The position numbers and the translations under genes are program-made. Positions 25,296 to 34,114 of a DNA stretch of 64,000 nt are shown piece after piece. The stretch is from Dyella sp. GTDB lineage: Bacteria; Pseudomonadota; Gammaproteobacteria; Xanthomonadales; Rhodanobacteraceae. The stretch lies in assembly GCA_035508595.1 (NCBI GenBank), contig DATJMR010000084.1:768-64767 (forward strand), read 5' to 3'. The notes under the pieces are model-generated. The model had not been told where the DNA came from. It did not search any database and was given only the letters and a program-made list of their open reading frames with translations. How positions within the stretch are numbered: position 1 is the first letter of the stretch; each line of letters starts with the position of its first letter.

Positions 25296-25319
25296 ATAGG
25301 TTTGGATGGATGGACGTCC
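25296..25319. promoter_or_regulatory. Putative tandem Met boxes upstream of sbp
   Basis: In-phase 8-mers ATAGGTTT GGATGGAT GGACGTCC (5/8, 4/8, 6/8 vs AGACGTCT). Confidence 0.55.
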
Positions 25320-25356
25320 GAAAGCGCGGATCGTCCTATCCATATGCGCGGATGCG

Positions 25357-26562
25357 TTAAATGAAAATTTCCGCACGCAGCTCGACCACATGCGGGTTGA
25401 TCACCAGCCCTTTTCGATCGCTGAACGCCCGGATGTAATTCGCCTGCAATCTCAGATGCGTGCCCAGGTACCAGTTCGCACCGGCTGTCCAGTCGTGCTC
25501 TTTGCCGCCCTGCACGCGGCCGTCATTGAGGTCCAGGTCGCTGTAACGCACGGCGAACTCGACGGCGCCCCAAGGATGGGACGGGATCACGTTGCCGACA
25601 TTGCCATCGTGGTACTGGCGCGATTCCCCGGTAATGACCCAGCTTGCGAATACGTAATAACCGCTGAGATCGTAGTTCGGCTTGGGCACGTCGAACGTCG
25701 TGTCAGCCTTGAGATATTCGCTCTGCACGGACCAGGGACCATCGATCCACAAACCTTCCAGACCCACACGATCGATGTGATTCACATTCGTGAGCGTGCC
25801 GGAGCTGACCAGGGCGACCGTAGTGAGACCCGCCTCCGGCGGAGTCTTGAAACTGGCGGTCGCCGGTTGCTGCACACCGAGCGCATCGACCAGCCCGTAG
25901 GGTCGTTCCTGCGATGCGGCGATGCCTAGATGCAGCACGCGATCGGCCTCGTGCAACGGTATCCACGCCGCACGCGCCGCCCATGTGTGGCCATGATTTT
26001 TGCCCGCCATGTTTTCGCCGTAGTAACCGAGGCTGGCAAGCCAATGCGCGCGTTGAATGGCCCAATCCACGCCGATGCGGCGATTTTCGTAGACCGCCTG
26101 CGAGGGCAGCGCCAACTCGATGAAGGTGGTCTGCGTGGAGGTGGTAACGCCCTCGAAGCTTACCGGTGTCTTGCTCTGCCCAAAGCGAATGGCGCCGAAG
26201 TCTTCGCCCAAGGCGGCTTTGGACTGCAATCGCAGAAAAGCATCTTGCCACTGCCTGGATTGAAAGTCGTAATACACCGTTGCGTCGTAAACGCCCGGTT
26301 TCTTTACATAGAAGCCCAAATACTTGCGCCGATTGGTATGCGCATCGATGAACGCATGATCGTCATGTGAAAAGTCATTCACGTCATATTGATAGCGCAG
26401 CACCAAGCCGATATCGGTCCCGTCGCTCAACTGAACCTGCGTCGGCCAATGGTCGAGCCCATCGACATCGCCAGCCTTGGCGTTGGTGGGGGCCATCACG
26501 GCAAGCGATGCCGATACGGCCAGCGTCAACACAGCAAATAAAGGCTTGGATCGTCGTGGCAT
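25357..26562 (-). CDS. OprO/OprP family anion-selective porin
   Basis: Signal peptide, RFGQSKTP.SFE, GPWSVQSEY, ASWVITGE.R.Y and GANWYL; beta-barrel-type C-terminus. Co-oriented upstream of sbp. Confidence 0.85.
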   Translation of the reverse strand: MPRRSKPLFAVLTLAVSASLAVMAPTNAKAGDVDGLDHWPTQVQLSDGTDIGLVLRYQYDVNDFSHDDHAFIDAHTNRRKYLGFYVKKPGVYDATVYYDFQSRQWQDAFLRLQSKAALGEDFGAIRFGQSKTPVSFEGVTTSTQTTFIELALPSQAVYENRRIGVDWAIQRAHWLASLGYYGENMAGKNHGHTWAARAAWIPLHEADRVLHLGIAASQERPYGLVDALGVQQPATASFKTPPEAGLTTVALVSSGTLTNVNHIDRVGLEGLWIDGPWSVQSEYLKADTTFDVPKPNYDLSGYYVFASWVITGESRQYHDGNVGNVIPSHPWGAVEFAVRYSDLDLNDGRVQGGKEHDWTAGANWYLGTHLRLQANYIRAFSDRKGLVINPHVVELRAEIFI

Positions 26563-26757
26563 AGCGTCCTCCGACGCCGCATGACGGCGCCCATGAAAAG
26601 TGGATGAAGAACAACCCTGGCCGAGCGCTGGGGATAGCGCCCGGAACCCATGCTGCCTGCCCGGTTTCGTGCGACGGAAAGGAGCGAATGGCATGCGGAT
26701 ATGCCACCCCATCATTTCTTGGCCAAAAAACGAAGTTCTAACATCTATCGATCAGAT

Positions 26758-26773
26758 GGACGTCTAAACGTCC
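26758..26773. promoter_or_regulatory. Putative tandem Met boxes abutting the cysJ RBS
   Basis: GGACGTCT AAACGTCC (7/8, 6/8), followed directly by AAGGA and ATG 26786. Confidence 0.65.
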
Positions 26774-26785
26774 AAGGACTCTACA

Positions 26786-28582
26786 ATGACCGCCGCTTCG
26801 CTATTGCCGTTACCCGAAGACAAGCACCCCTTGGTCGCTCGTCTTGTCGATGGACTGGAAGCGCCGGCCTTGCAGTGGCTGTCCGGCTATCTCGCCGGCC
26901 TGGCGACGCAACGCCAGGCCGGCGGCAAAAACGCAACCAACGAACCTGCGGCAGCTCCCGAAGCTCAAGCACGCCTGACCGTGGTGTACGGCAGCCAAAC
27001 TGGCAACGCCAAGCGTTTGGCCGAAGACCTTGGACGCCGCGCCTCCGCCGCGGGGTTGGCCGTACGCGTGGTGCGTGCGGATGCCTATTCCACCCGCGAG
27101 TTGAAGCAGGAACGCCTGCTTTACGTGGTCATCAGTACGCAGGGCGACGGCGATCCGCCCGACGATTCGCGCGCTTTGGTCGAATTTCTCGCGAGCGCCC
27201 GCGCGCCGAAGCTGGATGCGTTGCGCTACGGCGTGCTTGGCTTGGGCGATTCCAGTTATCCTAATTTTTGCGCCATCGGTCGACAGCTCGACGATCGCCT
27301 TGCCACGCTCGGCGCACAGCGCCTCTTTGCCGCCGGCGAAGCCGATGTCGATCTGGAAACGGTCTCGCAACCGTGGCTGGATCAGGCCCTACAGCAGGCA
27401 CGCGAACAACTGAAAGCGTCGGCGCCGCTCGCCAAGGTCACCACGCTTCGCACCGCGCGCACGACGCCGGCGTGGCATCGTGACCAACCGTTCCAGGCGC
27501 CGCTGCTGCTGAACCAGCGCATGACCGGTCGCGGCAGCGATCGCGATGTGCGTCATCTGGAGTTCTCGCTCGAAGGCTCCGGTCTTCGTTACGCACCGGG
27601 CGATGCGCTTGGTGTGTGGCCGAGGCAATCGCCGGCATTGGTGGATGCGGTGTTGCACACGCTGCACCTCGATGGCGAGGCAACCGTTCGCGTGGCGGAG
27701 GAAGAACACTCCTTGCGAACCTGGCTCGCCCACCATCGCGAACTCACCTTGCTTACTCGCCCCTTCTTTACAGCTCACGCCGAACGCAGCGGCGATGCGT
27801 CGTTGCAAGAATTGCTGTTGCCCGCCTCGCGCGACGCACTGTCCGCGTTGTTCTCCCGCTGGCAAGTGCTGGATCTGTTGCGCAAGCATCCTGGCGAGTG
27901 GACCGCCGAAACGCTGGTCGCGGCGTTGCGCCCCCTGGCGCCACGCCTCTACTCGATCGCATCCAGCCAATCGGTGGTCGGTGACGAAGTTCATCTCACT
28001 GTGAGCCACGTCGATTACACGTTCGAAGGCGAAGCGCGCTGGGGCACCGCAAGCCGATACCTTGCACAACATGCCGAAGGCGAATCGGCACCAGTGTTTA
28101 TCGAAGCCAATGAACGCTTTCATCTACCTGCCGACGATCGCGATATCGTGATGATCGGCGCCGGCACCGGTGTCGCACCGTTCCGCGCCTTCGTGCAGGA
28201 GCGCGCCGAACGCGGCGCCGGCGGACGCAACTGGCTGGTCTTCGGCAACCCGCATTTCCACTCCGACTTCCTGTATCAGACCGAATGGCAGCAAGCGCTG
28301 AAAAACGGATCCTTGCATCGCATCGATCTGGCGTTCTCGCGCGATCAAGCCGAAAAACGCTACGTCCAGCATGGCCTGCTTGAACAAGGGCGACGTCTCT
28401 ACGAATGGCTCGACGCGGGTGCGCACGTTTATGTCTGCGGCGACGCCAATCGCATGGCCAAGGATGTGCACAAGGCATTGGTGGCCATCGTTGCCGAACA
28501 CGGCGCCCGCTCGACCGAAGATGCCGAGGCGTGGTTGAACCAATTGATCCAGCAGGGCCGTTACGCCCGCGACGTGTATTGA
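26786..28582 (+). CDS. cysJ: Sulfite reductase (NADPH) flavoprotein
   Basis: [36 protein letters not shown] and the C-terminal RYARDVY. Confidence 0.97.
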
Positions 28583-32804: not shown

Positions 32805-32810
32805 TGCAAG

Positions 32811-32845
32811 GGTCTCCTCCTTCACGTGTGTCGAAGGAGGAGACC
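32811..32845 (+). terminator. Hairpin/terminator after sat-cysC
   Basis: GGTCTCCTCCTTC...GAAGGAGGAGACC 13-bp stem between convergent genes. Confidence 0.6.
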
Positions 32846-32930
32846 AGGCTTTATTTGCTTGCAGAAAGGCGTTACTCCAGCGCTGGCGGAGTAAAGCGGG
32901 TACGAAAGCTCGATCGGCTTGCGATTTGTA

Positions 32931-33938
32931 TCAGGCGGCGCGCGGTGTGGCACGACGTGTGGAGCGCGATTGCAATTCGCTCCACAGCGGCGGCGACGGC
33001 CAGCGTGGCTCGGCATGCCCCGCCACCACCCTGCGCAGCTCCGCCTCGTCCAACTGCGGAGCGACCAGGCGTGCCAACTGCGCGACATAGCTGCGCAGAA
33101 CATGATCGCGGCGCAAAACCATCCAGCTCGTGCAGACGGGCAACAAGTTGTCGATGTCGAGCGTGACGAGCTCGCGCGAATCCGACGGGCTGATGGCCAT
33201 TTCCGCCAGGATGCCCACGCCCAAGCCGGCGAGCACGTAAGTTTTGATGAGATCCGCATCGGCCGAGGTGCAGGCGATGCGCGGCGCGAGGCCGGCGGCG
33301 GCGAACGCGCGCCGCAACGAAGACTCCGGCTGCAGCGAGGATTCGTAACTCACCAGCGGATGCTCGGCCAAGTCTTCGACCCGCAGCGGGCGGTTCAACT
33401 TTGCCAGCGGATGACCCAGCGGAACCACGGCGCGGCGATACCAACGGAACAACGGCACGGCGATACCGCCCTCGGGCGGCTGGCCGCTGGTGCTGACGAT
33501 CACCAGGTCCACCTCGCCGCTTTCGAACAAACTGATGATGCGACCTTCGCCTTGTGGGCGGATGTGCACGCCCAGATCGGGGTAATGCTGCTTCAGCCGC
33601 GCAATGGCTTCCGGCAAAACGAAACGCGCCTGGGTATGCGTGGTGGCGACGGACAGCTCGCCGTGCGCCTCTTCGCGCAGATTGGCCGCCAGCGCACGGA
33701 TGTTGCGGGCCTCATGCAGGATGCTGCGTGCCCGTTCCAGCACCTGGCCGCCCGCGGGAGTGATGGTGTCCAGGCTTTTGCCGCGACGGGTGAAGACCTG
33801 AAAGCCCAGCTCTCCCTCGAGCTGCTTGAGCTGCTTGCTGATGCCCGATTGGGTGGCGTGGACGTTGTCCGCCGCCAGGGTGATGTTCAGGCCGGCGTCG
33901 GCAATGGCGACGATGTAGCGAAGTTGCGTAAGGGTCAT
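32931..33938 (-). CDS. cysB: CysB-like LysR regulator
   Basis: MTLTQLRY..LNITLAA..ATQSGISKQ, ATTHTQARF and DADLIKTYV. Confidence 0.92.
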   Translation of the reverse strand: MTLTQLRYIVAIADAGLNITLAADNVHATQSGISKQLKQLEGELGFQVFTRRGKSLDTITPAGGQVLERARSILHEARNIRALAANLREEAHGELSVATTHTQARFVLPEAIARLKQHYPDLGVHIRPQGEGRIISLFESGEVDLVIVSTSGQPPEGGIAVPLFRWYRRAVVPLGHPLAKLNRPLRVEDLAEHPLVSYESSLQPESSLRRAFAAAGLAPRIACTSADADLIKTYVLAGLGVGILAEMAISPSDSRELVTLDIDNLLPVCTSWMVLRRDHVLRSYVAQLARLVAPQLDEAELRRVVAGHAEPRWPSPPLWSELQSRSTRRATPRAA

Positions 33939-34090
33939 GAAACGGGCTCCAAAATGAATCGCGCGCAGGGTTGTGCTTCATGCGAGTCGAAGCACATACA
34001 GCTCACGAACCACCCTGAACGGCGTTTCATCACGACCTCCACACACCGGCCCATTACCGGTCGTCGTCGGACCTTAACACAGCGTTATTT

Positions 34091-34114
34091 GGACGTCTAT
34101 ACATCTATAAGTCT
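34091..34114. promoter_or_regulatory. Three tandem putative Met boxes in the cysB/cysG divergent region
   Basis: GGACGTCT ATACATCT ATAAGTCT (7/8, 6/8, 6/8 vs AGACGTCT), exactly in 8-bp register. Confidence 0.7.

Follow-up and report, generated by a model that had tools for sequence, protein, structure and literature searches.

Methionine biosynthesis in Escherichia coli and other enterobacteria is a target of the repressor MetJ, which a comparative survey by Leyn et al. 2014 (PMC4239095) describes in six gammaproteobacterial groups; the text of that survey does not count the Xanthomonadales among them, and it argues that MetJ and its sites were not transferred to other lineages. The core targets it gives are the met genes, metJ, metR, methionine transporters and btuB, and no cys gene is named among these core targets, a statement that leaves the supplementary full target list aside. 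In the Xanthomonadales, the same text assigns the methionine and S-adenosylmethionine (SAM) genes to SamR, a SahR-like regulator of the ArsR family (PMC4239095). Here we analyse a sulfate-assimilation cluster in a stretch of 64,000 nucleotides (nt) from Dyella sp. (contig DATJMR010000084.1; hereafter the window), a member of the Rhodanobacteraceae within the Xanthomonadales, and in particular two pairs of tandem 8-bp repeats that resemble the operator boxes of MetJ (Met boxes).

The MetJ encoded elsewhere in the same genome is, in our view, likely to use the pairs at 26758-26773 and 34091-34106 as operators, and in its SAM-bound form it would directly repress the cysJIH-sat/cysC run and cysB through them. 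A preliminary description of the window had proposed a candidate MetJ-type regulon over the whole cluster. Our analysis retains cysJIH-sat/cysC and cysB as probable direct targets; for sbp-cysTWA the proposal is unsupported, and for cysG it is doubtful.

Met boxes at cysJ and cysB

All three box stretches listed in the preliminary description are present in the window exactly where it had placed them. They comprise a triple upstream of sbp (ATAGGTTT GGATGGAT GGACGTCC), a pair ahead of cysJ (GGACGTCT AAACGTCC) and a triple in the spacer between the divergent cysB and cysG genes (GGACGTCT ATACATCT ATAAGTCT). A search of the window for two consensus boxes with up to 3 mismatches returned 2 matches, which are exactly the cysJ and cysB/cysG sites; shuffled windows gave an expectation of 0.08 matches, and none of 100 shuffles attained 2. 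In the whole source assembly (G000; 3.73 Mb in 388 contigs, 84% complete, 61% guanine plus cytosine (GC)), 9 positions score at least 13/16 and include both pairs, the cysJ pair with a score of 13/16, and the cysB/cysG triple (19/24) is the second-best three-box match genome-wide. With a scoring matrix built from 114 related sites (consensus GGACGTCTAGACGTCC), we obtained 17 matches at 14 bits or more, of which 5 reach at least 24.6 bits; the cysJ and cysB/cysG sites are among those 5. The sbp triple attains 15/24, a level shared by 163 genome positions, and its 15.2 bits rank 13 of the 17 matrix matches. The cysJ and cysB/cysG boxes lie far beyond chance and the sbp boxes at background level, so that two of the three tandem Met-box sites listed in the preliminary description hold up.

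Orthologous upstream regions were compared across a congener set of 26 genomes of the genus. The pattern RGACGTCTAWACGTCY, which describes box pairs with a T-A step at the junction between the boxes, occurs 71 times in these genomes versus 1 control match. It is found upstream of cysJ in 24/24 loci (2 of the 26 genomes gave no cysJ match and were left out), with flanks that vary on both sides, and in all 24 the 16-mer lies 13-15 nt ahead of the start codon, directly 5' of the ribosome-binding site (RBS). Other genera of the family also carry a box pair directly 5' of the cysJ RBS, scoring at least 12/16 in 19 of 28 loci and at least 10/16 in 26 of 28. The best score upstream of cysJ in MetJ-less relatives of other families is only 8-10/16 (6/6 loci; four further genomes gave no cysJ match). 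Further upstream, all 24 congeners share a conserved block ending in AACGAAGTTCTAACAT, followed by a variable stretch and then by the boxes. The hexamer TAACAT in this region looks like the -10 element of an activator-dependent promoter; the boxes start about 13 nt later, which would place them at about +7 to +22.

Upstream of cysB, an orthologue of which was found in 25 of the 26 genomes (the exception being G008), boxes 1 and 2 read the same in 23 of 25 congener loci, and G041 and G022 each carry a single substitution. Conservation is weak at the third box, which takes the forms ATAAGTCT, ATCTGTCT, AAAAATCC, ATCAGTCC and AGCTGTCT among congeners. A score of at least 12/16 is reached within 400 nt upstream of cysB in 24 of 28 loci from other genera of the family, typically as GGAYGTATAGACGTCC; MetJ-less controls give 8-10/16 (4/4), and 9 of 2000 random 400-nt windows of the source genome attain 12/16. 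Conservation in relatives therefore holds for the cysJ site (24/24) and the cysB/cysG site (23/25 identical) and fails for the sbp site (13/22; see below).

Promoter elements of cysB were assigned by eye, and we infer a promoter whose -35-like hexamer TAGACG lies within boxes 1-2, 17 nt from a -10-like TAAGGT. A T-N11-A box of LysR type falls inside the spacer of this putative promoter. Upstream of cysB in several other genera, TAGACG or TGGACG is followed after 17-18 nt by TATGCT, TATAGT, TATGAT or TATGGT. In a second geometry, present in many genera, a TTGACA/G hexamer precedes the pair by exactly 12 nt, which puts the TATAGA of the box junction at the -10 position. In both geometries, and across the family, the candidate operator appears to overlap a core element of the putative cysB promoter. 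The suggestion that cysB itself might be controlled is in this respect the best supported part of the preliminary description.

The MetJ homologue, its distribution and other box sites

The window itself holds no metJ, and a profile search of the genome identified a MetJ homologue on another contig, downstream of gcvT-gcvH (PF01340, 123.3 bits, cut-off 25). The same family was found in 24/24 congeners first searched. The product has 173 residues, 52 of 80 identical (about 65%) to residues 5-84 of E. coli MetJ (1cma). Its beta-strand is conserved (RKITVSIP versus KKITVSIP), and the K-I-T segment presumably corresponds to Lys23 and Thr25, which contact the bases in E. coli MetJ; the region aligned to helix B and the loop HAFTGQPLP are conserved as well. 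Past residue 83, a roughly 90-residue, Lys/Ala-rich tail resembling histone H1 replaces the E. coli C-terminus. This tail is present in congeners, in Dyella choica (the nearest named record, 93% identical over 135 residues), in a Dokdonella metagenome-assembled genome and in all homologues read from the source family (f1), whose frames are longer than the short frames of families f10 and f12. In one MetJ-positive genome of family f10 (G046), metJ and cysJ share a strand and are separated by about 1 kb.

The distribution of MetJ and of the pattern was recorded in one draw of 151 genomes from the order. MetJ was detected in 46 of these: 18/18 of the source family (including G000), 17/17 of f12, 10/17 of f10 and 1/17 of f4. 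The pattern RGACGTCTAWACGTCY occurs in 28 of the 46 MetJ-positive and in none of the 105 MetJ-negative genomes (45 matches versus 2 control matches), and in genus g36 of family f10 it is present in 5/9 MetJ-positive and 0/4 MetJ-negative genomes; since the genomes are kin, these counts overstate independence and amount to about three families plus one within-genus contrast. Despite kinship, this distribution is what the operator of a cognate MetJ would be expected to show.

It also bears on the suggestion that some other protein, a CysB-family regulator or another binder altogether, recognizes the boxes and that their Met-box likeness is coincidental. The boxes do adjoin blocks of LysR-type appearance, namely the T-N11-A box and the GGCATATC...TTTCC block described below. 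However, MetJ-less relatives keep the cysB orthologue and the cysJ activator-type block and lack boxes at both genes, the pattern is absent from all MetJ-negative genomes sampled, and the matrix consensus GGACGTCTAGACGTCC equals the published Met-box repeat (PMC4239095). We regard a different binder as improbable.

Boxes of the same kind occur at a methionine gene. The commonest pattern class in the genus is AGACGTCTAWACGTCC, at a locus missing from the source assembly. In 12/12 congener loci examined, a weaker box (TTACGTTT) stands in phase ahead of the pair AGACGTCTAWACGTCC, which abuts the -35 element of a TTGACG-17 nt-TATAGT promoter. Downstream of this promoter lie a SAM-I riboswitch (RF00162, 72-76 bits) and then metX (homoserine O-succinyltransferase model, 387.5 bits), with cysK divergent, and the locus adjoins 5S rRNA. 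Neither the riboswitch nor a metX orthologue was found in the source genome, which is 84% complete; the locus is probably present there and unassembled. The canonical methionine gene metX, under a SAM riboswitch, carries the best Met boxes of the congener genomes.

In 23 of 26 congeners, two boxes stand some 30 nt ahead of the start of a tyrB-like aromatic aminotransferase gene, and the source genome has an identical 16-mer there. TyrB is the last enzyme of methionine salvage. The 3.5-Mb congener G008 gave no match for cysJ, sbp or a cysB orthologue, and the boxes at tyrB are missing from it as well. It does have metJ, together with a single pattern match in an AT-rich spacer that has no recognisable neighbour. 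Met-box-like matches were also seen 136 nt upstream of gltB (GGACGTCTAGCCGGCT; only 15.2 bits, with an identical 16-mer in G002 and G004), upstream of pheA and in the leuA leader (below 17 bits or not listed), and after pdxJ, between convergent genes (C286).

Besides the kinship of the sampled genomes, several observations weigh against reading the boxes as operators of a SAM-dependent MetJ repressor. When up to 3 mismatches are allowed, matches to the bare consensus are no commoner in five congeners than those to a backward control (97 versus 94), enrichment being limited to the box-pair subclass with the T-A step at the junction; for this reason we used the T-A-junction pattern and footprints in place of bare-consensus counts. 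Taken with the background score at sbp, this near-equality speaks for chance resemblance in GC-rich DNA, which is likely for the sbp site. For cysJ and cysB/cysG, chance is refuted by the excess of matches in the window over shuffled sequence, by near-invariant sites in 24-25 species despite varying flanks and by the pattern counts across the genus, and we give it next to no probability as an account of the system. Consensus sigma-70 promoter scans of the cysJ spacer and of the cysB/cysG spacer of the source genome returned no site at threshold, so that the overlap of operator and promoter rests on weak hexamers. There is also no match of at least 12/16 on the metJ contig C62, and E. coli-type autoregulation is not seen. 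Autoregulation is typical of E. coli MetJ and not defining for the MetJ family; by every other feature testable in this analysis, the system appears to be a MetJ system.

A further point against a DNA operator is that the cysJ 16-mer, read as RNA directly 5' of the RBS, can form a hairpin with 7 bp in the stem and 4 nt in the loop (-9.5 kcal/mol). The element might then be a hairpin of the 5' leader that controls stability or translation, and both of its ends change together in G019 (AGACGT...ACGTCT). The fold is unexceptional (z -1.87, with 7 of 200 shuffles as good), however, and tandem Met-box pairs are palindromes and would show paired changes in either case. Since the metX site is upstream of its -35, it is not part of that transcript, no Rfam family was found in the spacers, and a hairpin would leave the co-occurrence with metJ unexplained. 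On this evidence we consider an RNA element at cysJ very unlikely.

Two conserved sites in the genome are not explained by a pure sulfur regulon and count on the same side. A strong box pair lies inside a yjeF-type NAD(P)HX epimerase/dehydratase gene and is kept in six genomes, where it encodes the peptide G-R-L-D-V; at the junction, 5/6 use TTA or CTA for Leu. Such Leu codons are unusual choices at 61% GC, and the codon choice suggests selection on the DNA. A glycine-zipper (Rick_17kDa_Anti) gene has the genome's best two-box match (15/16) after its stop codon and ahead of a bidirectional terminator, and the match is found at the same place in 5/5 genomes looked at.

The last observation on this side comes from the only experiment that our search found, described in a preprint applying DNA affinity purification followed by sequencing (DAP-seq) to two Rhodanobacter strains (10.64898/2026.06.06.730518), which reports more than 600 peaks for the MetJ homologue and no discernible motif. 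Its main text makes no mention of SAM, so the co-repressor was probably absent from the assay. A basic tail would favour unspecific binding, and the DAP-seq result would then neither refute nor support our model. In a separate account, the MetJ of strain R12 is called a putative repressor of methionine synthesis (10.1101/2024.10.24.620115).

Alternatively, MetJ may bind the boxes as a nucleoid-associated or architectural protein with a Lys/Ala tail of 60-100 residues. The sites would then serve as anchoring or modulating points, possibly activating or anti-activating beside CysB sites, and MetJ would not be a simple SAM-dependent repressor. The tail in all f1 homologues read, the longer f1 frames and the many DAP-seq peaks without a motif favour this explanation. 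So do the conserved sites at non-promoter places and the boxes at metX/cysK and cysG, which lie upstream of a -35 element or an activator-type block and not over the promoter. Against it stand the conserved MetJ core, including the helix B region and the HAFTGQPLP loop, the position of the cysJ boxes between -10 and RBS, which is a classic place for a repressor, and targets that are mostly sulfur amino-acid genes. We find such a role unlikely and retain direct repression by MetJ as the preferred reading.

Gene layout, the sbp region and the cysB leader

Model searches confirmed the gene names that the preliminary description had given to the cluster (Table 1), with the reservation that the cysB-like gene scores below the curated CysB cut-offs. 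It reaches 284 bits (NF009326, cut-off 436) and 270 bits (cut-off 402) with the NCBIfam CysB models, and 431.9 bits with the generic LysR equivalog NF009325 (cut-off 482); its position is inside the cys cluster. Sulfate activation in the window is assigned to a fused sat/cysC-type enzyme in place of CysDN plus CysC. Between sbp and cysJ, a placement kept in the genus, lies a Porin_O_P gene. In its listed open reading frame (ORF), residue 52 opens a typical signal peptide, and the true start is probably at about 26562, 51 codons inside the ORF; the porin-cysJ spacer is therefore probably about 223 bp and not 70 bp. An Rfam scan of window positions 20000-38000 found no relevant known RNA families.

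Table 1. Features of the sulfate-assimilation cluster and of box or metJ loci elsewhere; positions refer to the window unless a genome and contig are given
Feature	Position	Strand	Remarks
Sulfate uptake block porin-sbp-cysT-cysW-cysA	21409-26562	minus	no convincing MetJ site of its own
cysA	21409-22599	minus	model search
sbp	24253-25254	minus	start at 25254; run continues with cysT, cysW, cysA
-10-like TATAGT of sbp	25293-25298	minus
Box triple at sbp	25296-25319		weak; unsupported as MetJ operator
Activator-type block, sbp	25320-25347	minus	GGCATATC-N17-TTTCC
Porin_O_P gene	25357-26715	minus	listed ORF; between sbp and cysJ
Activator-type block, porin	26676-26705	minus	GGCATATC-N17-TTTCC
Putative cysJ -10	26739-26744	plus	TAACAT
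Candidate MetJ operator, cysJ	26758-26773		two tandem Met boxes, between putative cysJ -10 and cysJ RBS
cysJ	26786-28582	plus	TIGR01931 (NCBIfam), 760.9 bits; heads cysJ-cysI-cysH-sat/cysC run (to 32804)
cysI	28405-30288	plus	within this ORF
cysH	30285-31007	plus
sat/cysC fusion	31059-32804	plus	bifunctional sulfate adenylyltransferase/adenylyl sulfate (APS) kinase; NF004040, 881 bits
cysB-like gene	32931-33938	minus	CysB-family LysR-type regulator
Upstream ORF (uORF) of cysB	33935-34030	minus	31 codons, Cys/Met-rich (…SCMC…), with RBS; TGA overlaps cysB ATG (ATGA)
Putative cysB promoter	34071-34099	minus	-35-like TAGACG 34094-34099; 17-nt spacer; -10-like TAAGGT 34071-34076
T-N11-A LysR-type box	34075-34087		inside putative cysB promoter spacer
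Candidate MetJ operator, cysB/cysG	34091-34106		boxes 1-2 (GGACGTCT ATACATCT); overlaps putative cysB -35
Third box, cysB/cysG	34107-34114		ATAAGTCT; full triple 34091-34114
Activator-type block, cysG	34136-34165	plus	GGCATATC-N17-TTTCC
Putative cysG -10	34185-34190		TAGCGT
cysG	34223-35665	plus	siroheme synthase; divergent from cysB; NF007922, 584.9 bits
metJ homologue	G000:C62:2007-2528	minus	outside window
Box pair in yjeF-type gene	G000:C311:4260-4275
Box pair after glycine-zipper gene	G000:C88:1733-1748
Box pair upstream of gltB	G000:C220:24578-24593
metJ-cysJ neighbourhood, family f10	G046:C1:874866-876477

Sulfate uptake had been proposed as a direct target of MetJ, and we set the box triple at sbp aside as an unsupported operator. 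In addition to its background score, it is variable in congeners and absent in other genera. The box RGACGTCC is present in 13 of 22 congener loci, a count that leaves out G006 and G019, in which the protein match does not start at residue 1, and the rest of the 22 show degenerate forms, among them GGGCGTAT and TAACGTAT. In four other genera of the family, the best score upstream of sbp is 8-10/16, and in MetJ-less relatives sbp comes after the porin gene with no separate spacer. The flanks of the triple are much better kept than the box, as they hold a -10-like TATAGT and an activator-type block. The site is probably part of the sbp core promoter region and not an operator.

The activator-type block, GGCATATC-N17-TTTCC, is shared by the porin, sbp and cysG promoters, where it lies 18-21 nt ahead of a -10-like hexamer. 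Other genera, and families that lack MetJ, have related blocks ahead of cysJ. This block is likely to be a candidate site of a CysB-type activator, judging from its position and recurrence.

At cysG, the Met boxes lie about 75-100 nt upstream of the putative -10 element TAGCGT. Both the block and TAGCGT are conserved, and the boxes are upstream of both and not over them, which makes direct repression of cysG doubtful. Control of siroheme synthesis, another element of the original proposal, is likewise uncertain.

Between the putative promoter and cysB lies the short Cys/Met-rich uORF. It is open, in equal register and overlapping cysB in 25/25 congeners, one of which has a 5-codon in-frame insertion. 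The predicted cysB transcript start, about 30 nt ahead of the uORF, fits the promoter placement. In the leader RNA, the start of the uORF pairs with the start of cysB (z -2.2), and the MetJ-less relative G038 has a leader before cysB with four consecutive Cys codons. The uORF is possibly a translational coupling device that senses Cys and Met.

The proposed cascade and known sulfur regulators

We infer that MetJ is the protein that binds the two box pairs and that it presumably requires SAM; by analogy with E. coli MetJ, binding of the SAM-bound form to the tandem 8-bp boxes would be cooperative. MetJ bound at cysJ between the -10 element and the RBS would prevent transcription of cysJ-cysI-cysH-sat/cysC from starting or from proceeding past early elongation. 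Bound in the cysB/cysG spacer, the repressor would occupy the -35 region of cysB and lower the level of the CysB-type activator, upon which the CysB-dependent promoters of the porin gene, sbp-cysTWA, cysG and cysK would fall indirectly. The predicted outcome is a cascade from SAM through MetJ to CysB, plus one direct arm.

A wider picture is possible, and we put it forward tentatively. In bacteria of Rhodanobacteraceae type, MetJ may stand atop the sulfur hierarchy as both a specific end-product sensor, covering the entire path from sulfate to methionine, and a nucleoid-associated protein, with its H1-like tail and its sites in a coding region and at a terminator, shutting cysB and the sulfite-reductase operon and doubling the riboswitch at metX. 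In such a hierarchy, cysB would integrate SAM at the level of transcription and the supply of Cys and Met at the level of translation, through its leader ORF.

The repressor of the MetJ regulon in E. coli and other enterobacteria belongs to the protein family found here (core identity about 65%), and the two systems have a shared operator grammar of at least two in-phase 8-bp boxes near AGACGTCT. Methionine biosynthesis is a common target, through metX in the congeners. The Dyella system differs from it in the conserved candidate targets cysJIH-sat/cysC and cysB, in the lack of boxes at metJ and in the Lys/Ala tail. SamR shares the order and the metabolic role with the system described here, whereas its protein family and motif differ from those of MetJ; the Rhodanobacteraceae-type family studied here uses, or also uses, MetJ.

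The CysB regulon of E. coli and Salmonella covers the same targets (sbp/cysTWA, cysJIH and cysK), and a LysR-type activator is likewise encoded near them in Dyella. E. coli cysB is autoregulated and, to our knowledge, is not under MetJ. In Dyella, a candidate MetJ-type operator appears to overlap the putative cysB promoter and a coupled Cys/Met-rich uORF follows, unlike in E. coli. In our literature search, no paper came up that describes MetJ control of cysJ or cysB, that links SAM to sulfate reduction through such a MetJ cascade, or that deals with MetJ targets in Rhodanobacteraceae. The system appears to be a MetJ system in a lineage where it is undescribed, in which both the set of targets and the protein have changed.

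If this is correct, the end product of the pathway, SAM, is linked to its entry, sulfate reduction, via a two-step cascade. A concrete motif and target list would also become available for the Rhodanobacter MetJ homologue, for which there is so far only an unspecific DAP-seq signal. Bacteria of Rhodanobacteraceae type are common in the acidic, metal- and nitrate-contaminated subsurface, where sulfur supply matters. In network logic, the closest analogue is the McbR-CysR system of Corynebacterium glutamicum, in which McbR senses S-adenosylhomocysteine. McbR is described as a global sulfur repressor whose regulon includes the activator of assimilatory sulfate reduction (PMC2580772). The proteins themselves are unrelated, McbR (TetR-type) to MetJ and CysR (ROK-type) to CysB, and the likeness lies in the arrangement, in which a repressor of sulfur metabolism acts on the activator of sulfate reduction as we propose for MetJ and cysB.

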